A stretch of DNA of 64,000 nt, taken from Haplodiscus bocki. Taxonomy: Eukaryota. The stretch lies in assembly GCA_965655095.1 (NCBI GenBank), contig OZ296651.1, positions 26,412,001 through 26,476,000 of the forward strand, read 5' to 3'. Each line of letters begins with the position of its first letter. Positions within the stretch are counted from its first letter, which is position 1. The notes under the pieces were generated by a model that saw nothing but the letters and a program-made list of their open reading frames with translations, made no database searches and was not told the origin of the DNA. The translations under genes and the position numbers were made by a program. Below, piece after piece: positions 6,761 through 60,521 of this stretch.

Positions 6761-7739
6761 AAAAAAAGTCTCCTGCTGGATGCTTATGAGTCTTATGTGT
6801 ACAAAAGTCAACAGAAAATGACAGTAAACGCACTCTCTGAGATCTTTAGTCTACCATTAGATCAAAACTTACAAGGAAGCTTGTGAAATCCCCTTTAGAG
6901 AATGTTTTGCCGGTAGAAACATGTCATTTGAAACCTTGTTTTGTTTCTGTAGTGTTGAAGAATTATGAATTTTATTTCCTACGGTAGTGGCCACATAAAA
7001 CAATAACGGGTCAGCCTCACAAAAAAGGAGCGTGATTTTTTTTTCGAGATAAGGCTGGTACTGATAATACTTGCATAAAATTTCGCATTTTTTCGCACTT
7101 TTATGTATTCAATCTTCATCCAATTTCGCCTCCTATAGCATAGTGGTAATGTCATAAGGAAAAGTTAGGGGTTCACTTCAAACCAACGTCCTCCAGTCTT
7201 AGACACTATCGACTGTTTCAGAAGGAACTCTAAGTCAATCAGTTCTGAAGGATGGAACTTCATCAGGAATACTTGCTCAAGATGCTTGAGAGGGTTGAAA
7301 TGATGAGTTAAATAGTGAAGTTTTTTTTCGAAAATTTGAATGAATTGTTATATAGTAAAAGACAGCTACAGCTGAAATTTTTTCGGGTGTTTTTTTTTCA
7401 GATTCATTGAAGCCAAATGAAGTACTATGTTTTTTGATAAATGCAAAAGACATTTTCAAAGATCGGCCTAATATAGGCACATAGAATCGAATATACACTA
7501 AACACTAAACTACTCTATATAGAAAATGAATAAAACATTCATCTTCCTAGTAAATGATTGAGTCCTAAAGGTGTGTATTGTTTTTGCAACAAACCATAAA
7601 AAAACTGAGATGCACAAAAAGTCTAAAACCCAAATAAATCTCGTAAAAAAGTATAATATAAAATCTGCATATCCGTTTTCGACCCCACCAATCTTGGTGA
7701 ACATCATAGATCTTAATTTTGTATGAGCCAGCGGAAAGT

Positions 7740-10700
7740 AATTGGTAACAGATGAAAGACTAAGGTAAGGGATATAGAAAAACATAACAATACAACAAAG
7801 CATATCAACAACACAACTAAAAGTCAAACACCAAAAAATTATACCCATTGTCGTACAAAATACATTAAAAGCTACAAAAACTGCCCATTAATATTACAAA
7901 CAACAACCTAAGAAAGTCGAAAACCAGAGCGGACTCAATTTGTTCTTTCAAATGTAAATTCTTGGAGAGAAAAAATTTTCAAAAATGAACAACCGATCCT
8001 TTGTTTCTCTAATGAAGAATACAAAACAACTATAACATCGTGCTCGTCGGTTTACCTCTGTTGAACAAAAACTGCTACATCCGAGAAAAAAATTCTCGAA
8101 ACTGAAAACAACCAATTACTTAGCAAAACAAGTACAACCTGTTCTACATCAATTGGACAACGTAGCTTCAGATTTCAACTACCTTCTCATGTTTTAATTG
8201 ATAAGGGAATCTACGATGGTAGTCCTGTTAAAGTGCTGTCGTGGATCATGTCTTTTCATAGTCGAAAATAAAGCTAATAAATTCATCAGAAGAATTAGAA
8301 GAGATAAACAATGAATTAGAAAATGCTCAAGCTGCTGAAAACTTGGAAGTAAAGGAATCAGGTTGGGTGTAAATCCGAATTGTTAGCTTGAGTGTTAATC
8401 TCTACAAATATGGGAGCAAAGAGTGTAGAAGGTATGTTGAGATTCAAGCAAAAAATATCAATTTTGAGCAAACAAAACCAAAACCAAAATTGGTGTGGAA
8501 ATTGGAGTTTTCTGAATCATTTACCCCTACAAAAAACTCCAAGTTAAACAAAATTTCGTAAAAATTACTAAAGCAAAAAAAAAACAATTGATTTAAAGAT
8601 AGAAAAAGGAACAGTGTTTATAAACATCCTCAAACTAGACAACTTTTTTAACTTAACACTACACGTTTATCGACTTAGATGGAAAACCAACCTATCCGAC
8701 TGTGTTCTGACGTTGCATTATACACAAAAAGTACGGAAACATAAGAAAAGAGACAATAGTAAGGGAACTAAATTTTTCTCAAACCATTATTGTTTTGACG
8801 AAGGAATTATATACTTATATGGGACCTAGTCCTTGGAAAAATTATTTGAAAGCTATTTAACTACTAGATGAAATGATAATAAACAAAAAAGACCAAAAAC
8901 TTTGCTTAGAAAATGAAACGTGTAAAGTGAATTTTCCAAAAGAAACAGCCTTTAGATTTTGAAGAAAGTCAAAAACAGCCTTTGTTATTACTTGGGATTA
9001 CCAGTCCATTCGGTTTGAAGCAATGAGTTGAAAAGGTATTACTTCAAGAAGAAGATGAACAAAAAAGCATTTACGAAGACTTCACTGAGAGCATTTATTT
9101 GTACATGACGACAGAATTCGTAAAGTATATTTTCTTGAGAGCTTCAATAAAAACTGTTCAGGAGGTTCAGGGTTTCAAGATAGATTTGTTAATTCACAGG
9201 TTGTCAAGCCTGTTTTTGTTTTGAAAATTTAAAAAAAAATCCTATGGAGCTGATCCAATGCAAAGAGAACGTGGAAAAACTTGAGGAGTATAGAAAATGC
9301 TAATTTTTTGACAATCCAATTTATGCGGAAGGAGAACGTACAAAGTATGGAAGGATAAATGTTGGCCACTTTACAGGAAAAATCGTGGATCGATACATAC
9401 TCATTGTTAAATAAATACAATACAAAGTTTATCTTCATCTGTACCAAAAGCTGTTCATAATATGACTATTTATGGTTCACATTTGTTTGTCAAAAGTTTA
9501 ATACGCCAAACAGATTCGTCTGTGCCTAATTAACTCAATCCAAAAGTTGATGAAAGATTTAACCCGTTACTTTCGGACGGTTAGGCGTTTTTGATTCTGT
9601 ATAATTTATGCAATAGTCCTAGGATATTTTTGTTGAAGCACTCGGTAAAGACGAAGTGTCACTTTACAACTGTTTCGGTCAATCGTCAAAATTACTGAAG
9701 TTGTTGGAGAGAAGTGGGAGTTATCTGCTAGAAAACTAGCCTATTACTATGAACCTTTCGAAGAACATTCCATAACCAATGACAGATATCGAAAACGAAA
9801 AATGTTTTTCAACTTTGATTGGAGGGATACACAGTCGAGGAGAAAATACTAGAACAAAATATACGAGGAACAAATATGAAAACAGGCAAGGAGCTGTTAA
9901 TGTTTCTTTGTAAATCAGATACATTCTTATCAGCATACTCTTTATTAAAAGCTCCGAAAGCTATTGAAACCTGCGATTTAATTACTAAATATTGTGTCTT
10001 ATTTCCTAGGTTAACTCATGGATGTTGTTCATTGAAAAACAACCAAGACTTAAAGACTTCCGCAATCGAAATTTTTTTTCTGAAAACGGATTATGCGACG
10101 GTTTATTAAGCATTCACGGTCTAAGACAAATTCTAAATTCGATGCAGAATGGGAAAAGGAACATGGCGATGCTAGCCATTAATTTGGGTTATCAAAGACA
10201 CAGCATTTATTGAATTTAAATATTGAATTCGATAAAACCACTTCTTCAAAAACTGTACTCGAATGAAAAGGTGACGCTGACTATGGTTGTTTTGTAGAAG
10301 TATGTTCGGAACACGTGAATATTATAAGACAGAGGAACATACTTTTCTCCACTTTGTCGAGAATTCAAATTGTAGATGTACCATCTTTCGTGGAGTTTGG
10401 AAAAAAACCGTAACTACAAACCTTTGGAAAAACTAATTTGCCATTGCACACACACACACTGGAGAATACTTTGTCGGTTTCTCAAATTGAATTTGTGGGT
10501 GATACTGGGTCAATGAAGTTACATAGAAAGTGGTTTTAGATTTGAACAAAAACGATAGATGAAAAAAAGGTAGGTAAACAGACTGAATTAAGGGCTGAAG
10601 GAGACGCTGAAATTAGAAGATTTTCATCTAATGACGTGAATACTAATTTATAAGGAAAAAAATTGAAAGACACAAGAAAGAGAAAACGATTAGTCTTCGT

Positions 10701-11400
10701 AAAAGTTTATGTGAATTGTGTGAACGAGTAGTCTCTTCTTAGTTTTTCGGTACAAAGAAAAGGAGGATCACAGTGTTGAACTTTCGTTGTATTCGGATAC
10801 GGTTCAAGACAGGTGGTTTTTGACAAAACTAATCAACTTAGGTTTTAAAGTTTAGATTTATCAAACGTACTTATGTATGTAAGTTACTCTGTTATTCAAC
10901 AACCTCATTACGGAAAGATACCATAAAATGACAGTGTACGAGCATTGATTCTAACATTCACAACTATATGCGTAAATCAGCATTAACAGTTTAAAATTTG
11001 AAAACTGTTCCACAAAAAAATGTTTTACGCTTTCTACAAAATAAGGAATTGTCGTAAAAACTGTTCCTGATTCTTGAGAAAGCATTAATTAAACTTAGGA
11101 AAAAAAATCCTGACAAGTTATCAGGAGACGAACCTTGTGCATTCAAAACAAAAGATTATACAAAAACGCGAATCGAAAAGATGTAAGGGAAGTAGACGGA
11201 ACTATTGGAGGTACACGTAAAGGCTTAAAATTTGATAATGTATTGACTGCCCATTCATTGAACTTACAGAAGAAAAAATATCATAAAAACTTTCCTATCA
11301 GAAATGAGAGACCTACAGCAATATCACCAGAAACCAGGAAAAAAAGTTATGTCAGTATGTTGATTACGAAGATACAAAAATGCAAGTGAAAGCGATGAGT
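7740..11400 (+). pseudogene. polB: pPolB copy C (decayed, single CWxCD block)
   Basis: Nucleotide similarity to copies A/B throughout. Examples: ORF 9819-10109 KSDTFLSAYSLLK matches ORF 1021-1269; ORF 11135-11389 matches ORF 6494-6697. Confidence 0.85.
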
Positions 11401-21658: not shown

Positions 21659-23153
21659 TATATATATGCTTTCAGACAAAAAAAACTTGAAACAAATTTG
21701 GTGATTCAAGTTTATGTGTCCTTAGTCATGAAAAGATGCATTTAGTGAAAGTTTGTTCAAAAATTTACCCAAACTCCTTGCCTGAGAAATCTCCGTGATC
21801 TCAAATCGAGATATAGGCACTACTGTGGAAGCCCTAAACCGGGATCCAGGTTCTATAGTCTATCTTAATACATGGAGGCTCCTTCACCCCACCGGATCGA
21901 CTCTTACCACACTTGTTGTAGAGCATTTTATACTTCAAATTGTTCCTCATTCATTCGATTGTCTTTTCAGACAATTCATTTCATTTTTTTTTGGAAAATG
22001 GAAATGACTGAATCTAGAATTTCACCACATTCATCTGGATCATATGATGAATTGTGTACAAGATCAGTACCTGCAAGAAAACTCAAAGTGGACTGAACCT
22101 AGGAACTGGAACTGTAAATATGTGAGTTTGGAACGTGAACTTGTGATTCTCTGGAACTGCGAACTCCCAAAAAATTGAACGGGAGTTTGAAACTGAACCT
22201 GAACTGAACGTATGCTACCGAAGACGCTGGATTTTTGATTACAGGAAATAGTAAAAACTGGAAATGTGAGAAACGACAAATGAATTAAACTTTCTGAACG
22301 ACATGGATTTTTATCTTTATTTTATGCAGCCGTTGGATGAAAAATTTTCCTTTGACCCAGTCAAATCAAGCTAGCCTCGAGTGTCCCGAACATATCCTTC
22401 AACCGCGATCAGACGGGGCATGAATTCAAGTTCATGTAGATTTACTGAAATCCAAAGTGTTCCCCCACTGACCCCAGTAATTGTTATACAATTTCTTTTG
22501 TTTTAATTCGTTTAGGAAATGCTGTAATACTATTTTGATAAAATGTGGGAGCGTTTTCTCCAAAAATTTAAACTGATTTATGGAAGATTTAATTATTTAG
22601 TGAAACTTAAAATCGAATATTGTACCCGAAAGATCTTAGCTTAGATAGGACGCTAGCTAGTATTCATGTCAGATTTCCTATCCTGGGCAGTCTAGTTATG
22701 CCAACTTAGAAGTGGTCGCCATGTTTGTTGCATAGATTTACCAACCAAGTCCTTCAATACTGCAGCATGCCTGCGTTAGCAGGTAAAAATACCTGCAGCC
22801 TAAGGGGAAAGTATTTGCGGTCGGCTGGTAAAATTGCCTACTTTTTCATGCAATTTTTCCTGGGCCGTTTTTACAGTGTAAGTTGGTATATTTATACCTG
22901 TTCAAGTGAATCATTTTAATTTTAATGTAACTACTCAAAACCATTTTTTTTTCGTTCACGTGTCATTCAGCTTCGGCATCATCGTTGTGCACAACGAATT
23001 CCGAAAACACGTAAATTAAGTAGCGCAATTTTTTTCCTCATCAGAATGTCGTATCACGGCCAATCACTGTTGAAAAACCAAGTTTTAGTTTTCACGAACT
23101 TACTGTGGCTTTTTAATCATCGCATCATTTTCTAATTTGGAGTCCAGAAGTTA

Positions 23154-24079
23154 CCCGGGTTGAAGTCCCAGAGGTAATCAGCGCTGAACAGCGCTGTTTC
23201 ATAGTTTTGACGTTTTCGCGCCTCGAATCATTGACGACGAATCAGCGCTGTTCAGAACTGAAAAATTCAGCGATGTTTCAGAGCTGAACAGCGCTGTTTC
23301 AGAGACAAACAGCTCTGAATCAGCGCTGTTCAGCGCTGATTTTCTTAGCTCTGAAACATAGGATTTTCAGCGCTGAACAGCGCTGATTCAGTGCTGATTT
23401 ACTCTGCATCAGCTCTGATAGTTACACATGTAGATGAGACTATCAAATTATGATAACTTAGTCCGAAGTGCTGAAAACGCACGAAGTGGTCATTAAAATG
23501 GTATTCCTGTATTAAAGAAAGAGTAAAAAATCTGCAAATTGACAGCAAAGACGCGGATTTCTTGGAATAATCTTGAAACTTCACCCCTATAAACGCAAAA
23601 ATGTTTTTGAAAAGTTGAACCATATCTGTTTTGTTACTTGAGCAGTAACAGTAAACCCAAAAATTAAAGCATGTATTATAACTTTCGTCTATACGCAAAT
23701 GGTAAAAAAAATTTTTGTTTCTCACTTCTTTTCGTAAACTGGGCTGAAAACCAAACTTATGTGCCTCGAACTTGAGGTACTTACAAAAATTTTGAAAATA
23801 GTTAAAAATTAACCGAAAATTGTCATTCGGAATTGATCAAAAATCAGCGGTTTCAGAGGAAATCAGCGCTGTTCAGCTCTGAATCAGCGATGTTTCAAAG
23901 AAAATCAGCGCTGTTTCAGCACTGATTTTTAGCTCTGAAATTTTCCGTTTTCAGCGCTGTTCAGAGCTGAATCAGCGCTGTTCAGAGATTTTCAGGTAAT
24001 GAACAGCGCTGAAACAGACCTAAAAGTATTCTGAATCAGAGCTGATCAGCGCTGAATGTCTCTGAGACGTCAACCCGGG
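23154..24079. mobile_element. Non-autonomous DNA transposon (MITE), CCCGGG termini, TA flanks
   Basis: TIR CCCGGGTTGAAGTCCCAGAG versus reverse complement of CTCTGAGACGTCAACCCGGG (18/20). TA at 23152-3 and 24080-1. Dense subterminal CAGCGCTG palindromes at both ends. Confidence 0.85.
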
Positions 24080-24274
24080 TAGCTCAACGCATATTTTCAA
24101 AAGATACTTTGATCAGACAGAGATATTAACAGCGGTGCCACAAATAAACACATAAACCAGTTTGTCAGTTATAACTTTCGCTCCCTTTCAAGCAAGATTT
24201 CATTTCATTATAGCAATTATAACTGCACCGAAAAATGAGTTATAGCGAGCAGATTACTTTGAACCAAGTTACCT

Positions 24275-24749: not shown

Positions 24750-26434
24750 TGTCGCGGCGGTCTTCTTGGTCAGAGTTTCGCATTGTCTGGTTGCCGAAGA
24801 TGCCTGCTTCAGGATGAAGATCACTCTGGGAGTCGTCCTCATTCGTTCCCTGGTTTGTATTAAATGCGTTCTGGGACATATCCGGAGTGGTTCCGGAATG
24901 GCCTTGAATTAGCGAGTTCATGAGAAAGTCGTCTTTTACATGGGTAAAATGAGTAGGGAACGTGTCACTGTACAGGAATTATCCTCAAAATAATAGGAAT
25001 ATCCGTATGTATTCCGCATTGTATCCGGAATCAAATTTTTGGTGGGTTTTCCGGAATGGTTCCGGAATGGTTCCGGAAACGTTCCATAATACGTTCCTGG
25101 GATGTTCCTCAAAATTTTTCCTTATTTATTGCTGCGAACTTTCTTTTGTTTCGGGTTGCCATTTTCTAGGGAAAATACTGATAAGCTGTTAATATTCAAT
25201 TATTTCTTGCTGAAGGAAAATCAATCTGAGGTTTTTTACAGTTTCCAATATTACAACGAAGGGAATTAACAATACTGGATAATATCATCAGTACTCCAAA
25301 ATAATAATAACCCTTCTGTTTTTGTACTTTCATTTCTCTTATTTATGCCTTCTCCTTGGCGGGAAACATAATTGTTTACACGCCAAGTCAAGGTACAAAT
25401 AAGAAAAAGTACTTACAATATTAAAACATCAAAGTCTGAATGCCGACTCTGGCGGGAAAAAAAAACAACTTTTCCATCCATCGCTTCCGTCATAGGACGC
25501 GTCTTTTCCATCTTTCGACAGAAAATGGACGGACTTAATCCGTCAGAGATGGATATCAAAGTGTTTATTCCCGCGCCGACATATTGCGTATAAACAAAAT
25601 AATGTTTATTCCATAATTGGAGAAGTTGAACAATTCCTTAATTGGAAATATGAAAAGATTTACAAAATTAAAGTAGCAAGTGTAGAAATCTAAAAATGAT
25701 GGTAAATAAAAAGTATTCATGGTATTTCATGCATGCACATATCATCAATATTCACTCAGTAGTTCATAAGACTTTACTCTTTAGAAATGAGGAAAAACTA
25801 GTATCACTACTAGTTTATTCCTCATTCATACGAGTAGCAACTAGTGGTTTCCGGATAATTCCGTTTTCACTAGTAGTAGTATTTGTCTTCAGAAATGAGG
25901 AGAAACTAGTAGAAAAACTAGTTTACTCCTCGTTTAGACGAGTAGCTAATAGTGGTTTCCGGAATGATTCCGGAATATTTCCGTAGCCACTAGTAGTTGA
26001 GGCAAGCTAAGCTCAAATGAGGAGTGATTCCGGAATCACTCCAAGTTCACTACAGCACTGCAGCACAGTGTAGCTATAAGAATGATTGTGACGTCACCAG
26101 ACTAGTAGCGACGGAACGCGTACGGAACAAATATTCACTCTGCTGCTAGACAGAGTACGTGTCCGTTCCGCAGCAGTTCTGTCCCAATCTGGATTAGTAC
26201 ACGGGAGTGCTACGTATAAAAAACGTAGAATTTACATGAAAATTTACCGTGGAGTAATACGTATTTGATACGTATCAACTCCATGTAAAGGCGTTGATAT
26301 GTTATTGCAATATTATTATATGAATGGAAATGGAAAAGTCTAAAGTTTCGATACAGTTTCTTTTAATCTTCAGGCAATCTGGGGATGTCCTTTTCTTTCT
26401 TTATGCCCGTAGGCTTCGAGGGTATACTGCGACA
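24750..26434 (-). repeat. 3' LTR of copy 1 (~1.69 kb)
   Basis: On the minus strand it starts TGTCGCAG (26434) and ends CCGCGACA (24750). It is homologous to 57798-59529 and contains the MATRNKRK gag start. Confidence 0.85.
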
Positions 26435-26446
26435 CTCCCCCTCTTT
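26435..26446 (-). promoter_or_regulatory. Polypurine tract
   Basis: AAAGAGGGGGAG immediately 5' of the LTR TG. Confidence 0.85.
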
Positions 26447-26709
26447 GTGAAAGGACATTCCCATGGTCAATCTTCTTTTCTGTTTTCGATGCACTCTACT
26501 CATCGATGATTGTTCTACATAGAAATCACAAGTGTGAAGAATTCACAAGATGGCCAATAGCCATTAATAATTTGAAATCATGAATGAAGATTTATGCTCG
26601 CTGATGAGGTGATGAATTAACCAAGGGTACTTTATTAAGTGACGAAGTACATACGTAACTTCTCCGTCTCGAATTGGCCTGCCGCTCAGATGGGCGAAGT
26701 AATAGTTGA

Positions 26710-27917
26710 TCAAACATTTCTGAAAACTGTTTTGAATTCCCTCACAAAAAACCAGTCCGTTTTCGTCATTTCGTCCCGAAAATGGTCCTCGAAAGCGTCG
26801 ATTTATTCAGGCGAGAGACGACTAATAAGGAGATCTGTGCTGTCAAAATGTCTCCCATACAACTTGGTCGCTTCACCGTTCGTATTTTCAATTTTGATGC
26901 AGACGTCAGTTCCTTGTCTAGCAAAATCTACTGGCCTGTTGTTCGCTTCTAGAGACGCAAATGTACCCAGTATCAGCCCTTCCTTGGAAGGCACGCAACT
27001 TTGTTTTCCAGATTTGACAATTCCAGCTACTGTCACACCAATGATGATAGGGTCTCGGGAATTGAAGATACAAGTGGGCAGTATTCTCAATTTGCATGGG
27101 AACATGGCAATATGACGGTGCTTATCTTTCGCTTTTTGCTTCAAGTCTTCTTTATAGCCTTGGAACTTGTCGAATAAATGATAAATAATGTCTGCTGTAA
27201 AAATCTTGATGCCCGAGCGATCTGCCAGTTCCAGAGCATCTCTTTCCACTTTCACGTCGAACGCCAAAATGACGCCGTAGGGTTCGTTGTGTTCCAACAT
27301 GGTCGAAGCTTTCATCACATCTTTCTTGTGCACAGGTCCAATGTTGATACCTGAGTATGGGATCTGCGATTGCTTCAGGAACTCATATTGACTCTTCACT
27401 CTCGATCCCTTCATGGTTGGAGGGGCAAGTAATGCTTTTACATGTGTCTGTACTGTTCCTTCGTAGCCAGCCACAACAATTGAATCGGCTTCTTTCAATT
27501 TCCCATTTACAAAGATGATGTCAATAGTGGTGCCGAGACCCTGAATTTCCCTAATCTCCAGAACAGTGGCCTGAGGTTCACTCCTGAAGGCAAGTCTCTT
27601 TTTCAGATGATTCTGACAGAAGTTGACCATGTACCACATCATGTTGTCCATTCCGTCTCCCGTGTGAGCAGATGTGGGACAAATGGATACATAAGTGGCG
27701 GGGTCTTCGTTTTCCCAGAACGGGACAACGTTCAACAAACTTTTCTCTTCGAACTCACTGATGATCTGCTTCAGTCGCATGTCGAACTCATCGTTCGTGT
27801 GGTTTCTTCTGCTTCTTGATCGTATCTCTGATGTCTTTCTGAGCATTTGATTTCCACTCGAACAGCCTGTCGATTTTGTTCAGACCCACCACGGAATGCG
27901 CTTGTCTTTCTTTCAGC
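26710..27917 (-). pseudogene. EIF5B: Intronless 5'-truncated eIF5B (IF2-like translation GTPase) copy
   Basis: LNKIDRL (G4), PTSAHTGDG (G5), GLGTTIDII, INIGPVHKKDVMKAS, ILAFDVKV, IFTADIIYHLFDKF, FPCKLRILP, and C-terminal FRDEMTKTDW after a premature TAA at 26803-26805. There is a frameshift near 27800 and an internal deletion at QYE/EFLK. Confidence 0.93.
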
Positions 27918-27919
27918 AG

Positions 27920-28189
27920 AGAATTTTTTCGTAGTTCTTGTATTGAATGGTAATTTTGACGAAGTTACGTAGTAGTGAGTAAAATTTGAGGGCGTTAGTG
28001 TGTAAACAAGTCAAGGAAAGCAAAGTTTTGAAATGAGGAAATTTTGAGTTTCATTCCTCAACGGTTCCTTGAAATATCATGCTGACGTCATTGCTGGCAG
28101 ACAAATTCACCAAAATTGCAATGAGTACGTAATAAATTAATAAGGCATGTAAATCCACCAATTGATTATCAAGCTTTGCTATTCATGGA
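27920..28189. promoter_or_regulatory. Putative bidirectional promoter between cargo slot and antisense gene (copy 1)
   Basis: Conserved with 56640-56950 (reverse complement); lies between divergent ORFs; perfect TGACGTCA at 28083-28090. Confidence 0.45.
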
Positions 28190-29387
28190 ATGTCTGAGAA
28201 AAGTGTGATCCTGCATGAGGAGATCACTTCATCTCAAGCAGCTTCTGAGTCAGTAGTAGGTTCTGCCAGAACTCATTTTACCATTTCTCTCAACCTCCAT
28301 GTGCCCCTGAAGAGAAATATGTTGTGTAGATGGGCAGGGAGAGTCCGGGAATTCAGATGAAGTTCTAGAACAGCTTTTTGTTAATGGAGATCATGGCAAA
28401 ACTGATGCAGATGCGGGGAAGGAGGCACACATCAAGGGTGAGGATGTCGATGTTGTTTGTGCTGCTCCCGCGTTGGCGATCTCAGGGTTTGAGTTGCATG
28501 GTTTTATATTCTCAGAAACTGTCCGAAGGAAAGGACTGGAGAGACAGACTACGTCTGAGGGTGGTATTGGCACCGCTCGACCTCCGCAATGTGAGTTTTC
28601 AAATCTTCATACCTCATTAGCTTTTGGTTTGCTGGAATAATTTGGCGGCTGCTCATATTTTCCATAAGCTAGTAATCAGTGCGCACCTCTTCATGAAGAT
28701 GACTTTGTGAGGCTATTGTGTTTTAGTGTATAATCGTTCTGGGGAACCATTTGTTTGTCCGGATATCTCCGGGACCTTTTGGATTGACTCGGTTGTGATC
28801 CGAGTTTGAAATTGTTGCTCCCACTTCGGAGGAGGATGTCCGGAAAGGGGGCTCTAGATAAAGATCTCTCACGGCTACTCTTGAGAGTTAGATTCTCTCT
28901 AATCTACATTGTGGATTTGTTTTTGGGCAGTGGTTTGTTATCCTCGTTTTTGCAGGTAATGCCGAATTTGCTCCTAGAGCCAGAAAAGATGACGATGTCG
29001 ACTGGGGTGGAGACTGATGGTCAGCCGAAGGTACGCCGCGCCGTTGTTACCAAAAGCCTGGTATTGCTAGCTGCGGGCTTCAGCCTGACGTCTCTGAAGC
29101 AGTCCACAGTCGTAGTCGAAGTTGGGAGCTAAGGAAGCAGGTTTTTGATGATGGCAATAGTCATGTTCAAATGAGGAACTTACTAGTATTGTTCCTCATT
29201 GGTTCCAAGTTTTACCTCATTTTTGCGTTTTAGAATATTTCGTCACCGATCCTGCTGCCACTGTTGTGTATGCCACTAGACATCAAATTGTTTGTTTGTG
29301 TCGCTCCGTCAGTGAGGTGGAAAAGGCTCAGTTGCTGAATCCTCTAATGAATAGTAGGCATTCCCGTCTGATTTGTGTTTGGGCAAT

Positions 29388-29444
<57 letters not shown>

Positions 29445-29700
29445 GTATATTTTATGTTGGCAGATTTGAATGAATTACTGGTTCAGCTGCGACACTTTGT
29501 GGTACGTTCCGTAGAATTTCCGGCAATGTTCCGTATCACTCCTTGTTTTTCCTCGGGTGGAAGCAGTAATGTCGTTGATGTCGCCCATACTGGGGTTATC
29601 TGGGCTGTTCAAAGTTTTCCCTCATTCAGTCTATTCCTTGCCTGTGTTGATTTGGTTGCACACAATATCTTCGAATTGCCGTCTGAGAAAGAATGAGTAG
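28190..29700 (+). pseudogene. Antisense spliced accessory gene of the LTR element (copy 1, deleted/decayed)
   Basis: ATG TCT GAG AAA AGT GTG matches the ATG at 56639(-). Conserved donor AAT|GTGAGT at 28591, acceptor TTTTAG at ~28726, and CAG|GTAATGCCG exon. Confidence 0.6.
29390..29441. repeat. (TG)n microsatellite
   Basis: Directly visible. Confidence 0.98.
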
Positions 29701-30699
29701 AAAATGAGCCAGTCGACAAGGATTATCCTCAAAAAATGATATCAGAAATGCACTATTGCAATCAGCACTATCCATTGAGAACTAGTAGTCAAAACATCGT
29801 TTTTGTTCCAGGAGAACTGTCGAGGGCTTCCAGGAATAGGTACGTGTTTGCTCCGTATCAGTTCCATAACACGTTCCTAGGAATTCCGGAAAGTGTACGT
29901 GGGCGTTCCGCGGAACATACTAGGACAGGTTCAAAAATTCAATGTCTATAATTTTCGTTGCAATTCGGCTTCAGGTGATGACGTAGATCATATTTTGTGC
30001 TGCGGGGCTTGGTAGATTTAGGGTTTTGATGCTTCCAATTCGTGTCCCGTTTATAAATGAAAACATGGTCCATATCCATTCCGTCATATATCCGTTCTTT
30101 TATAGAGACTGTGTGGGCAAACTTCTCGTATTGTGCCTGGTGTACTCCTAGTCAAATGGGTTGTGTAATTAGATAGTTTACGAAATCCAGAGGCAGCCAC
30201 AGTTTTCAGGAAATATGATGGAGAACACTGGCATATAGAGCTCATTCATGCCTCATCTCTCACAAGCGTTTCCCAAACAGCGTTGAAGTTGTTTTTGTGA
30301 GAAAGGAAAATATTTTCATCTCCATTACATTTCAGTTGTGATGCCGTTTGTCGTTTCTTGGGTTTCGTTTTGAAAGTTCTGGGAGTTTTTGAGGCACAGT
30401 ACTTGTTTGCTACTAGTTTCATTTTCTCGGAACTGTTCCGTAGCGGTTCCGGATTTTGAAGTGAGGTTTCCTTTAATGACGTCGTTTGTGAATCTACATC
30501 ATTTCTCTGTTTAGTTGGGACGTATGTGTGTTTTCATTAGTTTCAGCACTAGAGTCATTCTGAATATTAGCTAACTTGAACTCTCCACAGATATCTCCAG
30601 AAGTTGCTGCCACAGAACACATGGGATTGGTGGAATATTTTTCTGCTGGTCTCCGGTCTGTCGGTCACTGTTACAGATAGTAGTTAGTAAGCTTAGTTG

Positions 30700-48936: not shown

Positions 48937-50669
48937 TGTCGCAGCACACCTGCGAGGCATGAGGCCGGCCCCTACCAGCCAAAAAGACACTGTAACGCTC
49001 AGGGAAAACTCAAACAATACATACCTTTATTCAAACTCTAACTATCACAATAACATGTTTTTCTAACTGTTGTACATAAATACGGATACGTATATAATAC
49101 GTATCCCTACCAATGCACAAAGACATGGGTACGTATTTATGCGGAACCAAACTGATTCGGACTAGAACGGAACCACTAGGGAATAAACAAATATTCATAG
49201 GGTATAATTAACATAAAAGGTGCCATTTTTATATTATTATATTTATTTATCTAGTAAATATAAATCCACATCTTTTCAATGAAATCTGACAGTTTGATTG
49301 ATTGCAAAAATTGCAGTTTAATTGGAAATTACGATTAAATCGATGCTATAAGCACAACAACTGATTTCAGGTGTATTGACTCTCAGAGTGAAAATTTGTT
49401 CCGTACGTGTTCCGTCGCCATTAGTCTGGTGGCGTCACTAATACTACTCTTACTAAACCCGTGCTGTAGTGAATACGGAATGATTCCGTAATCACTCCTC
49501 ATTTGAGCACATACTACCACAACTATCAGTGAATACGGAAATATCCGGAAACCACTAGTTGCTACTCGTACGAATGACGAGTAAACTAGTAATGCTACCA
49601 GTTTCTACTCGTTTCTAAATAGTAAAGACTGATGAACCGTTACTAATAATGATGAAGTGAGCACGAAGATGATGCTTGTCTATATTTTTCATATTATCCA
49701 CATATTTAAAGTCATGCATTCTGTAATTTTTTTATTATATTTTATTTCACTTCTCTAACTAAGGAAATATTTTTCCTTTTTCCATCTAGGGAAAATACCT
49801 TTTTATACTGTAAACACAAGAACGGCGGAAGAACAAACACTTTGATGTCCATTTCTTACGGGTTAGGACCGTCCATTTTTTCTCGAAAGTTGGAAAGGTG
49901 TGTTCCATGAGGGAAGAGAAGAGATGGTTGGAAAAGTTGTTTTTTTTCCCGCTAGGGTCGGCATTTCTTAACTTCGATGCTATACTTTATTAAAAATTTT
50001 TCCCTTTTTCTGCCTTGACTTGGCGTGTAAACATTTATGTTTCCCGCCAGGAAAAGGTAAAAATAGGAGAAATGAAAGTAAAAAATCAGGAATTTGAGAA
50101 CTTTTCCAGAATCTTATAGTCTTAAGCTTGTGTTCTGTTGTACTGACGATATTAACCAGTATTGACACATTTTTATTTCCGCTACTCTAAACTGTAAACA
50201 CCACTTTGATTTTCCCTTCAAGAAAATACAGTCAATTATTTATCACTGAGAAACATTTTTACCGTAGAAATGGCAACTTGAAACAAAAAGAAACTGGCAG
50301 CCCTAAACAAAGGAAACTGTGAGGAACATCCTAAGAGCAATTTGGCACAAAACTCAAATGCTTTCAGATCACAGGACGACCATATAAATGAAATTTTTGA
50401 AGAAACTGAGGGAAGAGTCACTAAAAAGTTTTCCCAAGGGTTTAGCAGAACGGAAAACCGCATAGTAGGTGCATTAGCACGTCTTGATGACTTCCTCATG
50501 AACCCGCTAATTCAGGGCCGCTCCGGAGCGGCTCCGGAGACGTCCCGGAACATATTTAGTAAAAGCCAGGGAACGAGTGAGGACAACTCCTGGAGTAACC
50601 CTAATCCTGAAGCAGGCATCTTCAACCACCAGTTGACACAAAAATCTGGCCCAGGAGACGGCCACGACA
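48937..50669 (+). repeat. 5' LTR (1733 bp)
   Basis: Direct repeat of 57798-59529; TGTCG/CGACA termini; preceded and followed by GTTTC. Confidence 0.9.
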
Positions 50670-51927
50670 GTTTCATTTAGGTTGCCACTTTAGGTGGTCG
50701 TTGTATTACATAAATTTCAGTCACGAGTTTTTTTCCCATTAGGTGAATCCTCTGCAGCGAAAATATTAGCGAAAAGAATGACTAGTTTGAATGGCATTGT
50801 TCTCGTTCAGTGCAAACTCTGTAAATTGCAGCTTAGGGTAGAGAACTTCGATTGTTTTAGGTATGCTTTAATTGATTTGTTAGGTGAAGACTGCTACGAC
50901 ATGGTGACAGGAGCTACAGAACAGATTCGCAATCGCCACGACATGACAGGAGTTCACAATAAAGTCAATTACTGCTCCCCTAGTATATCTTCAGGAAAGC
51001 AAAAAGAGAACCGCTGTACCAGTCAGCCGCCATTCCGCAGCAGTGAAAACACCCCTGCGACAATTGAAGCATACTAAATTCTGTTGACCCTTCAGCAGTT
51101 GGCAAACAAAAACAATTCTGCAATTTTCCATAACAATAAAAACATTATTTCCAAATTGTCCAAGACACGTACAACAACGATGCCCACGTTCGATCGAAAA
51201 TCTGAAAAATTTGAGTTGTTTGTCAAACGAGCCTCAAAATCCATATTCAACTGACTGGAGAGGACAGAATCAAATACTTCCAATCTCTCATGGGGGAGAC
51301 GCATTACAAACACTTAAAAACATTAATGGCCCTAACCGAGAGAATCTGGGAGAAGTTCTGGCAGTTTTTCTAAGGAAAAATTTAGAACCCCAATCGATGG
51401 CGACAGTCAAACACAAACTCCAGAATCTTGTCTTCAACCCAACAAATCAGAAATTAGTAGATTTTCTTCATCGAATGAGGCTGCGCCAATTAACACCCCG
51501 CCAACTCTTACCAGACATACCAATCACACCACTTGAATGGCAATTAGACCCGGGAGTTATCATCAAACAAGATGACTTGTACGCCAGAGCATGGGATTGT
51601 GAATATGAGAAAGTGAATATGTCAATATTTGATAACGATTACATCAATCTGGTAAAACCTAATTCACCCGAAATCACAGTACGATTTAGATTTGAAGAAT
51701 CAGCTGATGAAATGAGGAGCAGTCCGGAAACCACGCCAGAAAATTCCCCAGAAATTACCCCTCAGACAGACAGATCAGATGACGGAACGGACACGGATCA
51801 CTACATGCAGCCTGATGCCGATACTAGTGTAGAGCAACCCAACCCTACGCCTACCAACCCCCGCTGCTCAAAATATGATCTACGTCATAATCCAGAGCCA
51901 AATTGTAATGATGATTACAGATATTGA
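50270..51927 (+). pseudogene. gag-pol: gag N-terminus/capsid fused by deletion to the pol (integrase) C-terminal tail
   Basis: MATRNKRK start inside the LTR; MPTFDRKSEKFELF; YFQSLMGxDALQT; junction LVDFL|HRMRLR at ~51467. Protease, RT, RNase H and integrase core are absent. Confidence 0.8.
50902..50913 (+). promoter_or_regulatory. Primer binding site (TGGTGACAGGAG, tRNA-Leu-like)
   Basis: TGG immediately after an LTR-end remnant GCTACGACA. The tRNA identity is tentative. Confidence 0.7.
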
Positions 51928-52327
51928 CCGTCTCCCACTACCGTTTACGGAACGCATACGTACACAATCCGGAAATCCTAGGATTGTGTTATGGAACTGA
52001 TATGCGGAAAGCCTACATAATCTTTCAAGTGCTCATCAGCCTTTCTGAAGTAACTATTGAGCACTACAGACCGAACCATACGAATTTTGGCATTTGAAGA
52101 TACTGGGAATTGGATCTTCAACAAAACGCCCCAATATATCATGAGATAATATACGGAATGTTTGCGGAACCAATCCGGAAAAACTACCCAAATTTGATTC
52201 CGGAAACAATACAGAAAACATAGAAATATTCCCAGTATTCTGAGGATAATTCCTGTAAAGCGACACGTTTGGTACTCATTTTACCTATACACAAAGAATG
52301 GCTACTCTAACTGAATTCAAACTAATA

Positions 52328-55300
52328 CTAAATTTTAAATGCGAGAAGTCTATACATATATACAATTAAACTGTTATTGATATCCCCCTTGGAAAACTGG
52401 GAAATTACGGAGATCACGACTACCTCTTCTTGCACCCGACTTCTCAAAACTCTTCTCGAGAGCATCTTCAAATGAAGGACGGCTAGCAGACAAACTTTCA
52501 ACAGAAAACTGTTTTTTTTCGCAGCATCAGGACTCACTGGCACTCGCCCCTTCTTACTTTTCCGGAGACTTGACACAGCTCGACTGCAACAAAGGAGACC
52601 GAGCTTATCATGCTCTTCAACATATTGCAGATCTCCTATATCAACGATATCAGAGATGCCGATGGTTTTGCAAGTTGCAGCCTCACCAACAGCTGATGAT
52701 GCAACAGTTTCTGCACCAAACCAACGCTCCCGTGTATCTTTTACCGCCTTCCTTCGTGATACAATTTTCTCTCGGCATGACTTTATATCTGCAATTACGG
52801 GGCCAGCCTCTACACCAATTGCTCCCCAAGGGTCAAATTTGGATTTGTTCCGAACAGCTTCTGCGGCAGTAATGGCAGTGTTCAGCATGCTGACCCCGGC
52901 CTCGAAGAAAAAGTTCCACTGCGTGAACAAAGTCCTACACACATGCCATTGCACCTTTCACTTTCTCATGACTGGTTGCAACCCCATTGAGAGACACAGT
53001 AAGGAAGGGATGCAACTCTGAGGGACCCTTCACCACTAATGCTGTCAACTGAACAATCTGAGAACAGCACATGTGTTAAATCATGAGAACATCGAGATGA
53101 TTTTAAAGCACCATATTACTAACTTTGTGCAAATTCCGCCGAGAACGGAAGCCAGGCTGGTTGAGAACGCAAAGACGTTATTGATTAGCACACGAGACCT
53201 ATTGCCACTTAATTCCAACTGTCACTGCTCGTGGACTAAAGAGTGGAATTTAGCCCTTGCATGTTCAATTTCTGACCCCCGAACCGAGCCAAGCTCAAAC
53301 AGCCCATCCAGAATTTGCCCGAAGAGATGGAAAGCTGAATAGTCATCACCTCCAATGAAAATTTCAGAACAAAAACAGCTCAGTCCTTGCCCAACCTCAA
53401 AGAAGCACGACAGTCTCTGCGGAACTCTTTTGGGAGGAAACTGCTGTTTTTTTCAAGGGACGATAACAGACGGGTCATTTCCAAGAAATGCTCCTGTGCA
53501 ATTGCTCCAAAGCACGAATGATTTGGGAGCATGTACGCCTCCCATTTGTCTATCACGGGCGGCTCGCTACTCCGTGTCAGTTTTTGCAATAAACAATACA
53601 CAAATCGGAAGAGCTCCCCAAATGCCAGATAGCCAACATCGGCACGCCCAAGATCCAATTCGGAGAAATTGTGTGCAACTAAAACAACGCACACAATGAC
53701 CAGAGGATTATGGAACCTAGAAACTCCCGCCCACCCCTACAAGCAGACTACCAAATGAGGCTCAAAACCAGGAATGATACAGAAAATTTCCTAGTTTGCC
53801 TGAAATGAGGAATAAACCAGGAGTGCTACTAGAAATTCCTAGTTTATCTTGATTGAAAACTAACAAGGATCACATCCACAAAGACGGTACAAAGCCTAGC
53901 AATCGCTCAGGAAACCATGAAAGTACCGCAACTCCCAAAAACGCTCATTAAACGGGTATGAAAGTGGATACTTCTTGATTCAGCCCAGTTTCCCAAAATG
54001 AGGAAAAACGAAGAATGGTGCCACAAGTTTCCTAGAAAATCCTACCGATTTTCTGGAATGTATACGTACCAACGTGAACCAGATGAGGAATATGCGAGAA
54101 GCTGGACTTACAGATCTGGAGAAACTTTTGGAACAGGCGTAATTTGCTTCTTGCCATCTAGTCAATATAAAAATAGCCATCCATTCCCATCTTCTAAAAG
54201 AAAACAGCGAGATGAAGGCGTGAAAGAAAATGCAACTTAATTAAAAGCGGAAAATGCATTCAAACGCGTGACAATAAAATCGGTCATCGAGAAGGGATCC
54301 AAGGATCCAAAGACGGAAGGAGACACTTTTTGCAGACATCGTTTCAGGACACGCAGATCGAACACTGGGTACTCTACTAGCTTGCGGCTGTACTCACTTC
54401 CCAAATATTCGCCGTAAGTGTCGGTCAAGACAAGCGACACACCAGAAACTGCAACGAGGGACGCCGAACCACGCACAGCAGTCACAACCGACCCGAGCAG
54501 TGACAACTCGTATGTGGCATCAACGGAGAAGCGGTCTGTAACGGCCACGGCAACCCGACGGGAAGTGTCCTTCTCCCACGTGCGCATGAAGGCCCACAAT
54601 GACACACCACGCTCCTTGAGTTCAAGGCTGTAAAAATGGTGAGCCTTAGCCCAACCAACCACGTGAGACAGAATTTGGGGCGGCATTCCAACAACGATGA
54701 TTGACTAAAAGCAAAACAACAATGTAAATCGGGAATGTAATGAAGTGATTCCCGAATTTTACGGAACTTACCAAAACTTCGTCAAAAGTCCAGACTACTT
54801 CAGTATTGACTGGCCCGGCGGTTAGCACGAACCCTGCCCACAGCTTCTCAATCAGTTCATTGCTGCCTCTCTTCCTCAGCGCATCCACCAAGCACGACAC
54901 TTTTGTCAGAACAGGCAACTGATGGTCAACGGCACCAGCTTCATCGGTGATCAAGTCTTCTGCAAACGGATGCTCACGATCACGTACCATAAGAGGACCT
55001 TTTCTGATCTTCTCCCTCTGACGCTCCAGTTCATCCTCACTTGATGGATTTCCGTGGAAATCCAGCACGCGCTAACCAGGTGTTTCCAGACGCCAGCGGT
55101 TATCACGGGCAAAGTGACGACTACTTCGGAAAGGCTCCAACACTTCATGATGTCCATGTGTGAGCACAGAGTCATTCATCCGGCACACCGGACAGTAAAA
55201 ATGGCTTGGTATATTGTCAGCATCTGATGATATTGTCACAAAGAACCTGCCAAACTCGGTGGCCGCGTGCACTTTCTTCATCCGGAAAGTCTTCTTGGAA

Positions 55301-56639
55301 AAAATTTTCCGGCGCCCTATGCTCGTGTTTGTCTCATCTCCACTGGTTTCCCAGATCTCAACTCTCTGTGGACTTTGCAATCGCCCTTGCTTTAACCTGT
55401 CTAGCACCTTATTCAGTTCTGTCAACATAAAGGCGTATTTTGTACACCAAACACAAAAACTGTTGAACCCGATTGAGGCCAAAAATACTAACTATTCATT
55501 AAGGGAGACAGCAGTTGTGCTTTCTCCTCCTCACAAATGGACCGACACAAGGACACCATCTGATGACCAGTGGCAGGAATCACAGTGGCAGCAGGATCGT
55601 TGACGAACTGATCTAAAAGTCAAAAATGAGGTAAAAATTTGGAGTCAACATGAAACAATACTAGTAAATTCCTCATTTGAACAAAATATTACCATCATCA
55701 TACGCCCGCTCCAACAACTCCCGGCTCCGACCTCGACTGTGGACAGACTCAGGGATATCATGCTGGGGACCCCAGCCAACGGTACCAGGCTCCTGGCAAC
55801 AACAATGTGACGCCCCTCAACTGCCCATCAGTCTCCACGCCGGCAGATACATCTTCATTTCCGGAAACTCCCGGAATCGTTTCGGCATCACCTGGAAACA
55901 GATGGGAAATGAGCCACTGATATGACCAAAAAAAGCTGCAATGTAGAATAGAGAGCAACCAACTCTCATGAACAGCCGTGAGAGGACTCTTTGGAACGCG
56001 CTTGGACCGACTCTTCTTCTCAGCTTCTTCCTCTGAAGTCGGCGCGCCAACCTCAAACTCGGAAACAGATACGTGTGTTCGAGGCAATCCAGGTTCAGTT
56101 GAGAGAACCACTGGTTCTCCAGAGCGATCATACATTAAAATACAACAGCCTCACGAAGTAATCTCCATGTTCCAGCGCGCGCAGCACAAATAGCCTAATA
56201 GAATTCAATGATAGGCCAGCAGAGAAATTCTAATAGCAAGGCAAATGGTAAATGTCAAAGAGTCGAAAACTCACATTGTTGAAGGTGAGCGGTGTCAACG
56301 ACACCCTCGGACACATTCTCTTTCGCAAGTCTCTTTCCAAGAATATCTGAGAGCGTGAATCCCTCAGACTAGTACCAGAGACCCCAACCTCGTCAACGCC
56401 ACCAGCAACATCAACGTCCTGTTCTTCGTCCTTCGCATCTGCCTCAGTGCCAGCTTCTGTCTCGCACACACCGCCTACTTCATCTGGACCTTCCACAGGA
56501 CTCTACTCGCCTCTCTCTCCAGCAACTTTCTCTTCGGGTTCATCAGAGGGGAAGGGGAAACAGCAGCTTGAACACCTGAGATACTGTCCGCTTAGCAGGA
56601 ACTAATCTCTTCAAGCAAGATGACGCTTTTTTCTGACAT
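52328..56639 (-). pseudogene. Antisense multi-exon accessory gene(s), probably hAT-transposase derived (Zn finger plus inactive RNase-H-like core)
   Basis: HFYCPVCRMNDSVLTHGHHEVL...SSRHF zinc finger (ORF 55072-55482). A 67-bp GT-AG intron at 54705-54771 joins DEVL|SIIVVG in phase 0. FYSLELKE...FMRTW and LVAVSG resemble hAT core strands without the Asp residues. Donor GTGAGT at 56274. Confidence 0.6.
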
Positions 56640-57053
56640 ATTTCCAGTTCAATTCGAAGAACGTGGTTAATAAGCTATATCATGGTGGATTTATAATTTC
56701 ATTCATGAAATTCATTGTTGTTTTAATTTTTACTATCACCGATTTGCCTGCCAGCAATGATGTCATCACAAAATTTTCAAGGACATATTGCGGAAAGAGA
56801 CTAAATTTTTATCAATTTTTTAAAACAACTTCATTCCTTGATTTGTTTACAATTCTTCATCTTCAGTTATACCGTCAACAACTCGACTTCAGCAATTAGA
56901 AAGCTCCCGCGGGAATTTCAAAGCATTTCTTTGGCTTCAAACGCGGGAACTTCAAAAGAATAACTTTTGTTTATATCGTCAATTCTTCAAGTAACTTCAT
57001 CAAACGTAGCAGCTCATCTTATCTCTCAAACTTCCTTGTCTTTAACAATCGCG

Positions 57054-57902
57054 ATGGCAATCCAGGCTCAGTTGAAAGAACCACTGGTTCTCCAGAGCGA
57101 TCATATATTAAAACACAACAGCCTCACGAAGTCATCTCCATGTTCCAGCGCGCGGAGCACAAATAGCGCAGCACTTCTTTCTTTGGATTTTTCATCCACA
57201 GAATTGGATGTTTTCTATGTGGAGCGCTCCTCAGAAAAAAGTAATCCGGCTCGAAATATCACTCCGTCCGTGCTCAATTCAACACAATTATCAGGGGCAA
57301 TGGCTAGGGAGACAATTACTATCTCATACGTCGCCTCGCTGGATCCACAGATCATCACAATTGATTCGGATTCCAATGAACCCACAATTCCATATGGGTT
57401 TGGCAGTCAACATCCAATTGTGTCTCCCAACCTCAGTGATCTCAACTTGCCTCCCAACCCATTTAATGTTTTGGCTACTATGGCCGCGATTCGAGCGGAT
57501 GAAGAGTACAGCCCCCAATCACCGGAGCCATCCATCTTGTCTTCAATTTCGATGCCCCCAGTGAATGTGAGTACCATTGAAGGCTAGGAGACAACACACA
57601 CAACAACGGACGACGCTACATTTTATACTGACGATGAGCCCAGACGAGTCTATTCGGATATTTCTTCAACCGACACCTTTGACTCCAATGAGCCAGGAAA
57701 CGTATCTATCGCTCCGAGCCCTTCCGCCACACCACCACCTCCACGAAGACAAAAAAGGAAGCTGAGCATGGGAAAGTCTTTTCCCAAAAGGGCGGAGTGT
57801 CGCAGCACACCTGCGAGGCATGAGGCCGGCCCCTACCAGCCAAAAAGACACTGTAACGCTCAGGGAAAACTCAAACAATACATACCTTTATTCAAACTCT
57901 AA
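57054..57902 (+). pseudogene. Sense accessory ORF C: disordered S/T/P-rich protein with SIM-like and NLS-like motifs, running across the PPT into the 3' LTR
   Basis: 283 codons in one frame with a single internal TAG (57585-7); IITIDSDS; PPPPRRQKRK; terminal TAA at 57900-2 inside the LTR. Confidence 0.6.
57786..57797 (+). promoter_or_regulatory. Polypurine tract
   Basis: AAAAGGGCGGAG directly before the LTR TG at 57798. Confidence 0.85.
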
Positions 57903-59529
57903 CTATCACAATAACATGTTTTTCTAACTGTTGTACATAAATACGGATACGTATATAATACGTATCCCTACCAATGCACAAAGACATGGGTACGTATTTA
58001 TGCGGAACCAAACTGATTCGGACTAGAACGGAACCACTAGGGAATAAACAAATATTCATAGGGTATAATTAACATAAAAGGTGCCATTTTTATATTATTA
58101 TATTTATTTCTCTAGTAAATATAAATCCACATCTTTTCAATGAAATCTGACAGTTTGATTGATTGCAAAAATTGCAGTTTAATTGGAAATTACGATTAAA
58201 TCGATGCTATAAGCACAACAACTGATTTCAGGTGTATTGACTCTCAGAGTGAATATTGGTTCTGTACGTGTTCCGTCGCCACTAGTCTGGTAACGTCACT
58301 ATTACTACTCTTACTAAACCCGTGCTGTAGTGAATACGGAATGATTCCGGAATCAATCCTCGTTTGGGCAGATACTACCACAACTATTAGTGAATACGGA
58401 AATATCCGGAAACCACTAGTTGCTACTCGTACGAATGAGGAGTAAACTAGTATTGCTACTAGTTTCTCCTCATTTCCAAAGAGTAAAGACTAATGAACCT
58501 TTACTAATAATGATGAAGTGACCACCAGGGTGATGATTTTTTATATTTTTCATCTTATCCACACATTTAAAGTCATGCATTTTCTATTTTTGATTTTATT
58601 TTATTTTATTTCACTTCTCTAACTAAAAAAATACTTTTCCTTTTTCCATTTAGGGAATATACTTTTCTATACTTTAAAAAAACGTCGGCGCGGGAATAAA
58701 CACTTTGATGTCCATCTCTGACGGATTAGTTCCGTCCATTTTCTGTCGACTTATGGAAGAGGCGCGTCCCATGAGGGAAGAGATGGATGCAAAAGTTGTT
58801 TTTTTTTCCCACCAGAGTCGCCATTTTCCAACTTTGAAGCTATATTTTATAAAATACGTTTCCCTATTTGTACCTTGACTTGGCGTGTAAACAATTGTGT
58901 TTCCCGCCATGAAACGGTATAAATAGGATAAATGAAAGTACAAATTTAGAACTTTGAGAAACTTTCCAGAATCTTATACTCTTAAACTTGTGTACTGTTG
59001 TACTGACGATATTAACCAGTATTGATTCATTTTTATTTCCGCTGCTGAAAACTGTAAACACCAATTTCCTTTTCCCGTCAAGAAAACACAATCAGTTATT
59101 TATCACTGAAAAACACTTTTCCTGCAGAAATGGCAACTCGAAACAAAAGGAAACTGACCAGCTCAAACAAAGAAAACTGTGAGGACCGTACTAGGAGCAA
59201 TTTGGCACAAAACTCAAATGCTTTCAGATCACAGGACGACCATATAAATGAAATTTTTGAAGAAACTGAGGGAAGAGTCACTAAAAAGTTTTCCCAAGGG
59301 TTTAGCAGAACGGAAAACCGCATAGTAGGTGCATTAGCACGTCTTGATGACTTCCTCATGAACCCGCTAATTCAGGGCCGCTCCGGAGCGGCTCCGGAGA
59401 CGTCCCGGAACATATTTAGTAAAAGCCAGGGAACGAGTGAGGACAACTCCTGGAGTAACCCTAATCCTGAAGCAGGCATCTTCAACCACCAGTTGACACA
59501 AAAATCTGGCCCAGGAGACGGCCACGACA
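57798..59529 (+). repeat. 3' LTR (1732 bp), containing open 133-codon gag start from 59130
   Basis: Direct repeat of the 5' LTR; followed by TSD GTTTC. Confidence 0.9.
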
Positions 59530-60521
59530 GTTTCATTTAGGTTGCCACTTTAGGTGGTCGTTGTATTACATAAATTTCAGTCACGAGTTTTTTTCCCATT
59601 AGGTGAATCCTCTGCAGCGAAAATATTAGCGAAAAGAATGACTAGTTTGAATGGCATTGTTCTCGTTCAGTGCAAACTGTGTAAATTGCAGCTTAGGGTA
59701 GAGAACTTCGATTGTTTTAGGTATGCCTTAATTGATTTGTTAGGTGTTTTTACGTTGCTTGTGGGTACTGATTCAATCATTACACCAGCCTTTCTCAGCA
59801 AGTGTTCGATATCGACTCCCGTACTGGAGAAAAAAGTGTAGTCTCTTTGGTAAAAGTATGCTCGTCAATTGGAGACTAAAACGTAATTTTTTCTGCAGAA
59901 GTTTGAATAAAAGATCAGCCGTCACGTTTGAGAGTAAAGAGGGGACATGTTCCCCAACTTCAGATTGATTCTTCTATGAGGAACTTTGACCCTAAGTACT
60001 GCGCGCCAAAATAAAATAAATGGCGATCATTTGTTTCACGGCCAATTTGAAATGATTGGGCACCACTTTTTTGCTCTTCAACTGTGATGAGTTTTATGAC
60101 TGAAAACATCAAAATGTTTAGAACGTTCTGATCTGGAAACATAAAGCACTGAAAATCCATCAAGAACTGGGCTCAGAGTGGCACAAAATGCAGGTCCAAA
60201 AACTTCTACGAAGCTTGGTGTTTGGTAACGAAGTCTGATGAAATCAATGCTTACACCTCAAGAACTCAAGAAGTTTTAATCAATACCTTTAGTATATGGT
60301 TGAAAAAGTTGGGAGCTTGTGCTTCGAGTTATTTTTCCGTCTGAATTTGAGCTCGTGGGAAAGTATCTGAATTTATTGGGTTTGAAAGAGTGAGATAAAA
60401 TTGATGCAATTTAAGTTTTATTTTGAAAGAACTTGGCTGGCTGAAAAAGTCTGTGATACTGTGGGATGAAGTGAAGCACATGTTTTTATTTGAGGTTTTG
60501 ATGGGTTTGTTAAAAGAGGTA

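Follow-up and report, generated by a model that had tools for sequence, protein, structure and literature searches.

The locus described here raises the question of how a fragment of the gene for the translation factor eIF5B came to lie inside an LTR retrotransposon, and whether it works there or is carried as a passenger. The window is a 64,000-nt stretch of the Haplodiscus bocki genome (assembly GCA_965655095.1, contig OZ296651.1, positions 26,412,001 to 26,476,000), and the fragment occupies 1,252 nt of its minus strand (27919-26668). The fragment matches a solved eIF5B structure in the PDB (E = 1e-121, with a gap in mid-alignment) and contains the Pfam domains IF-2 and GTP_EFTU_D4, which bears out the original prediction of an intronless eIF5B piece sense to the element. 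The spliced coding capture (26710..27919, 4.1% diverged from the parent) begins after the G3 motif and reaches the native stop codon at 26712-26710. G4 and G5 are retained and the parent's G3 sits just upstream of the capture start, as expected from the predicted lack of G1-G3. The internal deletion noticed earlier removes 228 nt (76 codons) in frame at 27370..27385, together with one exon-exon junction, and is flanked by a pair of host stretches, each of 16 nt, that agree at 13 positions. Two reported lesions of the window copy were also located. These are a +1 frameshift at about 27803 (27800..27806, position read by eye) and a private premature stop at 26805-26803; a 3-nt deletion lies near 27030 as well.

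The 3' end of the fragment differs in part from what had been proposed. A 3' UTR is present as 32 nt (26678..26709, minus strand) and the last-exon match stops at 26678, but the AATAAA hexamer at 26631-26636 assigned to it is element sequence. The hexamer is a point variant of the element found in 2/17 eIF5B-bearing copies and in none of the 52 empty copies (of 56) in which the site was read, and was rejected as the eIF5B poly(A) signal. Beyond the UTR lie 10 nt of host sequence (26668..26677) that originate 7,464 nt past the last matched eIF5B base. The cargo was thought to reach the last ~45 nt before the polypurine tract (PPT), but 233 nt of ordinary element sequence (26667-26435) come after it, consisting of the rest of the slot (26447..26667, including the hexamer) and the PPT itself (26435..26446).

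The carrier lies on the minus strand and is truncated at its 5' end. Its 3' LTR (24750..26434) is of the about 1.68 kb type and matches the LTR of a full copy at 92.5%. Upstream of the slot are a spacer (27920..28190) that has no coding constraint in any frame and the remaining internal region (28191..30665), which has no gag start. Similarity to the full copy stops at 30665; the window copy lacks a 5' LTR, and no pol was found in it. Full copies are 7.5-8.7 kb when uninterrupted and have LTRs of 1.4-1.7 kb, canonical ends, a primer-binding site, a PPT and 5-bp target duplications. Their gag matches PF03732 (E = 2e-5) and the BEL-associated DUF1759 (E = 1e-6), and no recognizable pol or reverse transcriptase was found in them. 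Because no pol was found, the carrier appears to be a non-autonomous gag-only LTR retrotransposon mobilized in trans. A search for an autonomous partner among the best 150 gag matches found none, the longest frames there reaching no more than 592 aa. In a related element, one piece matches Integrase_p58_C below its cut-off. Ty3/Gypsy was considered as the superfamily, but the gag matches to PF03732 and DUF1759, with no reverse transcriptase, do not settle the assignment. The genome contains 475 exact matches to the PPT-LTR junction. In full copies (L037/L038, L047/L048) the LTR contains the start of the gag frame, which continues across the primer-binding site; that site lies in tandem 42-nt in-frame units numbering 2 to 12 per copy.

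A second, decayed element of a related subfamily lies on the plus strand (48937..59746) and is 66-80% identical to the first in patches. The original prediction placed the eIF5B cargo where ORF C sits in this element. The position is indeed the same, but the ORF C region (about 56964-57902, plus strand) is native to the wider family and belongs to the other subfamily. ORF C was rejected as a cargo, since the genome contains 150 or more matches to it (of 1537 candidates, 150 were scored), and no database relative of it was found among longer proteins. A TGA interrupts ORF C (57304-57525) in most of the 150 matches and many have a common 131-aa open frame, so a frame or start other than the one originally assigned may be the true one. 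Elsewhere in the window, three tandem units of 4.1-4.6 kb that have diverged from one another and include a 484-nt internal repeat lie at 1-11400, MITE-like palindromic repeat units in an inverted arrangement at 23149-24084 and a Tc1/mariner-type transposase frame at 60664-61560 (DDE_3, E = 3e-21).

A genome search identified the eIF5B parent at G000:C1:105828999-105807375, on a contig other than that of the window and 91-97% identical per exon. The parent is not intronless, an alternative for which the original prediction had left room. Five GT-AG introns of 425, 677, 273, 803 and 17,975 nt interrupt the captured span; the cargo crosses four of the splice junctions exactly and the fifth falls within the 228-nt deletion. 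Comparison with the empty haplotype shows that the cargo stands in place of 16 nt of the element, with discontinuous element sequence on both sides. At the 5' switch point (27912..27921, minus strand) the parent agrees with the empty element at 9/10 nt in 15/56 empty copies and at 8/10 in 17/56, and is identical in 1/56. The 11 nt of the 3' switch point (26657..26667, minus strand) are common to the downstream host site and the element, with identity in 5/56 empty copies and 10/11 in the commonest allele (27/56). The 10-nt downstream host piece occurs once in 17.4 kb, on the same strand as eIF5B, and at that site runs on into the 11 nt common with the element; the expectation for the combined 21-mer in 17.4 kb is 3e-9. 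Read depth at this site is single-copy in DNA contigs from one study, perhaps of the assembly's own sample. The capture template was probably a longer eIF5B transcript that extended to the site 7,464 nt downstream. The join between the UTR and the 10 nt starts at a possible splice donor and has no acceptor at the exact base; it may represent a UTR intron or a further template jump. Three features of LTR-mediated retrocopies, namely intron absence, discontinuous element flanks and microsimilarity at switch points, are present. The parental introns, exact junctions, microsimilarity and empty haplotype support the predicted capture of a spliced eIF5B mRNA by template switching.

The eIF5B cargo was found at 21 loci on 12 contigs besides the parent, with all 41 protein-search candidates scored. 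Fifteen copies are full, two lack the 5' part and four lack the 3' half, and the 5' and 3' junctions are the same wherever they could be read. Exact, mutually different 5-bp target duplications at 9/20 of the other loci, with one-mismatch duplications at two more, indicate that the cargo spread by retrotransposition. Within these copies the two LTRs are 0.13-4.6% apart. A tree built from the first 760 nt places the parent on a branch of 0.003 within a star of copies whose support is mostly weak; this short branch suggests that spreading began soon after capture. The shortened four copies include the youngest. These four (L081-L088) have one further deletion at a 10-nt repeat, found on two cargo backgrounds, and two types of LTR accompany the cargo, a combination that points to probable recombination between copies.

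Coding status was evaluated in an alignment of 19 of the 21 copies, leaving out two partial ones and cutting the four shortened copies to 255 codons. All 19 are broken by a stop or frameshift. The +1 frameshift at nt 117 is present in 14/19, a stop at codon 28 in seven, and a 3-nt deletion in 11/15 full copies. These lesions are common to many copies, including the youngest (LTRs 0.13% apart), and the broken cargo was therefore inherited through transposition. dN/dS was estimated from variant counts against the host codon, ignoring the tree and recombination, which leaves wide intervals for shared variants. Cargo values were 1.33 (0.60-3.38) for variants in three or more copies, 0.81 (0.46-1.49) for those in two and 0.98 (0.79-1.23) for private variants. 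The corresponding values for gag in 13 copies were 0.25 (0.13-0.51), 0.65 (0.32-1.38) and 0.55 (0.41-0.74). The six copies with both regions gave 0.88 (0.63-1.25) for the cargo, a weak contrast with gag (Fisher P = 0.09). Only two differences are fixed in all eIF5B copies, both synonymous and too few to read. The eIF5B cargo is not a working gene and most likely a neutrally decaying passenger.

The occupancy of the slot was surveyed in 90 of the first 100 exact junctions listed among the 475, located on contigs C1 and C2; these are not a random draw, and the counts refer to copies rather than capture events. The spacer anchor was present in 87/90. The three loci without it are a mosaic identified by eye (L121), a copy with a large deletion and a foreign piece (L181), and a member of another subfamily (L137). 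The slot is empty in 56/87 and contains foreign inserts in 31/87; none of the 90 loci carries eIF5B. Twenty-one inserts belong to one five-part mosaic lineage, four are importin-5/Dscam-like and two are Miro, with one each of Miro/Dscam-like, Dscam-like, epsin and SH3-like/Miro. By our reading, the 31 insert-bearing copies stem from roughly ten captures. The inserts of the 31 copies lie within about 215 nt before the PPT. The identified cargos, which come from at least four other host genes, are all sense to the element, and their junctions lie between about 250 and 35 nt upstream of the LTR. Database matches support Miro (E = 6e-46), epsin ENTH (E = 2e-33), importin-5 (E = 2e-15) and Dscam-like (E = 4e-8) assignments; weaker leads are USP-type (an Atlas lead flagged as weak), cadherin (E = 0.003) and SH3 (E = 0.09). 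An upstream control covering 172,421 bases of 69 elements, which is blind to old inserts fixed in the family, contained three unmatched stretches, none host-like by eye. Copy L181 and database protein P0050 suggest that some captures may begin further upstream. Occupancy of 31/87 copies by varied cargos strongly supports the predicted exchangeable slot, on evidence other than that first offered for it.

The cargos of this slot record repeated replacement. Miro cargo of about 890 nt is present at 24 or more loci (L103, L182, L189-L196), and its last 45-90 nt persist as a tail behind later cargos, including an SH3-like cargo and one with a Pro/Tyr-rich frame (L155, L220-L223, L226). The Miro parent was not found among the best 40 of 71 candidates. 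The importin-5 parent is located at G000:C3:92769293-92761898 with no element within 30 kb; its introns are absent from the cargo, which is up to about 1.75 kb long, spans four of them and also exists as shortened derivatives (L124, L210-L213). Most importin-5 cargos have 71 nt replaced by a tRNA-like piece that has no ARAGORN or Rfam match; we take it to resemble a tRNA A/B box. The first 40 nt of the cargo do not match the parent and presumably resemble a MAST kinase tail. One importin-5 cargo (L211:720-2160) has two further segments inside it, one from the integrase tail of a related element and one cadherin-like. The commonest mosaic (21/87) is ordered as putative USP-type piece, importin-5, tRNA-like piece, importin-5 and Dscam-like Ig piece (L099, L106, L037/L038), and its LTR pairs are 0.07-1.1% apart. 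Serial overwriting is indicated by the longer and shorter cargo forms and by the surviving Miro tail. Epsin cargo is present at 10 loci that are 98-100% alike (L153, L214-L216, L236), and its parent was not found in 10/10 DNA or 20/20 protein candidates of the assembly. One low-depth 3.8-kb read contig matches 563 nt of the epsin cargo and then continues, which is a hint only. Unnamed ENA gene calls (P0001, P0003, P0005 and P0050) are translations of cargo chimeras, further mosaics included, and would be mistaken for host paralogues in annotation.

Cargos of other genes gave dN/dS values like those of eIF5B, with 0.98-1.67 for four of them and 1 within every interval. No coding constraint was detected in six frames across the 3' 1.4 kb (spacer and slot) of the 56 empty copies, and the proposal that spacer and slot provide a coding frame for fusions was rejected. 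A role of the spacer as a splice-acceptor zone was not convincing (AG count of 1.9 versus 3.2 expected).

These data make a single eIF5B capture by template switching, followed by neutral carriage in a reused slot, the highly probable history of the locus. Reverse transcriptase would have jumped onto a co-packaged eIF5B transcript and returned, both times at short common sequences. During minus-strand synthesis the enzyme would leave the element RNA 234 nt inside the PPT end, copy 10 nt of the far-downstream eIF5B transcript and then the 3' UTR and coding sequence, slip across 228 nt, and re-enter the element 16 nt upstream of the departure point; we infer this order of jumps. Later switches onto cargo-bearing RNAs would yield mosaics. 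The slot probably consists of leftover sequence that the element can spare, bounded upstream by required sequence (gag and cis-elements) and downstream by the final 35 nt, which include the PPT and are kept in every cargo haplotype. Chimeras formed there would stay mobile, and the slot would be reused for this reason. In all likelihood the slot tolerates and accumulates the products of copying errors and is not a source of working proteins. It may instead be a genuine hot spot of template switching close to the PPT. Inserts are almost absent from the 3' region upstream of the slot, although that region shows no constraint at the protein level, and this suggests either RNA-level constraint or a hot spot.

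Other origins and roles for the eIF5B piece were weighed against this history. An intronless copy in a repeat-rich region might be expected from a LINE-made processed pseudogene inside one element or from an assembly error, either of which is extremely improbable. The window and sister junctions, read by eye, contain no poly(A) tail or target duplication around the cargo, and 16 nt of the element were lost instead. The original prediction had allowed for a LINE-mediated insertion into a single copy, but the shared junctions at 21 loci exclude a single-copy event, and read contigs cross the 3' end of the cargo at several times single-copy depth. The original prediction also suggested that an eIF5B lacking the P-loop might have modulated translation. 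Production of a truncated eIF5B that alters translation initiation to the element's benefit would be compatible with the in-frame deletion, with a piece that reaches the native stop, and with open stretches of 333-358 aa in several copies, the shared frameshift being absent from 5/19. An in-frame outcome has a one-in-three prior, however, and here follows from repeats in the same frame. There is no in-frame start between the upstream in-frame stop and the 5' junction, every aligned copy is broken, dN/dS is about 1, and the frameshifted lineages (14/19) went on transposing. The protein-level suggestion is not supported and is very unlikely.

The original prediction also raised the idea that the copy may generate small RNAs against the host gene. 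Retention of the cargos would be explained if their transcripts fed small RNAs that hit host genes, either regulating those genes or making the host silence cargo-bearing elements more gently, and such a function would be invisible to dN/dS. The genes of origin are conserved and have housekeeping or neural roles, a single mosaic lineage with very young insertions accounts for 21/87 copies, and Pxyfem (PMC9674220) and the epigenetic conflict described in the accessible part of a maize study (10.1101/777037) are precedents. Against this, the 56/87 empty copies are thriving, eIF5B cargo makes up at most about 4% of the family (21 versus 475), four copies including the youngest have lost half of it, cargos overwrite each other, and captured elements in maize show no copy-number gain in that same part of the study (10.1101/777037). 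RNA-level retention is accordingly judged unlikely. A related reading, which we consider doubtful, is a standing capture slot that samples co-packaged host mRNAs to the element's gain, with fragments of essential genes such as eIF5B and importin-5 blunting piRNA silencing or allowing host genes to be tuned. The slot and the mosaics are observed; the gain to the element is hypothetical.

Taken alone, the eIF5B piece is a clean, ordinary LTR-mediated retrocopy, and the family is the interesting part. Its young copies number in the hundreds, its empty state is known, parents can be located and intermediates have been preserved. These traits make the family a natural archive of the host RNAs that enter retrotransposon particles, of the sites at which reverse transcriptase switches and of the way in which mosaics arise. 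Cargo-bearing and empty copies form a matched comparison for asking whether an element gains protection from silencing by carrying host fragments, a question studied so far mainly in maize.

Retroviral oncogene transduction is the familiar example of spliced host mRNA captured by co-packaging and template switching, and the resulting defective genomes need a helper. The src gene sits 3' of the viral genes, and oncogene cargos are selected as proteins. The cargos described here differ from them in decaying neutrally. Pxyfem of Plutella xylostella is likewise a multi-copy spliced host-gene fragment joined to an LTR element at short motifs, but as described in the accessible text it is W-linked and clustered and makes silencing RNAs, whereas the copies here are dispersed, sense to the element and known from DNA alone (PMC9674220). 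Maize Bs1 is an LTR element with pieces of three host genes that was recopied with shared junctions, and the portions of the reports available describe a transcribed and translated chimeric gene of 1-5 copies (PMC13317346, PMC5131818). Unlike Bs1, the present family lacks coding constraint on its cargos, and many alternatives occupy one slot.

The closest precedent is the set of LTR-mediated retrocopies described by Tan et al. in 2016, in which partial spliced mRNAs lie between discontinuous LTR-element flanks (PMC5131818). The accessible part of that work reports switch-point microsimilarity, multi-gene chimeras, secondary retroposition as non-autonomous elements, and switch-back at one fixed site in the BLASTOPIA family (PMC5131818). 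The capture mechanism, multi-gene chimeras and secondary spread are known already, to judge from these partly accessible sources (PMC5131818, PMC13317346). In the openly accessible literature that was searched, no eIF5B capture turned up, nor did any animal LTR family that reuses a single slot in over a third of sampled copies. Two LTRs and a target duplication, also features of such retrocopies, are present in sister copies (9/20 exact), whereas the window copy is 5'-truncated. Retrocopies in the accessible text of Tan et al. replace part of internal ORFs, whereas gag here is intact and constrained (PMC5131818). They number 15 polymorphic copies in flies and few per vertebrate genome, with few insertion sites each (PMC5131818). 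Compared with what that text describes, a single family here carries cargo in one short 3' slot in 31/87 sampled copies, its cargos have been amplified to 10-24 or more copies, and the intermediates of serial overwriting are preserved.
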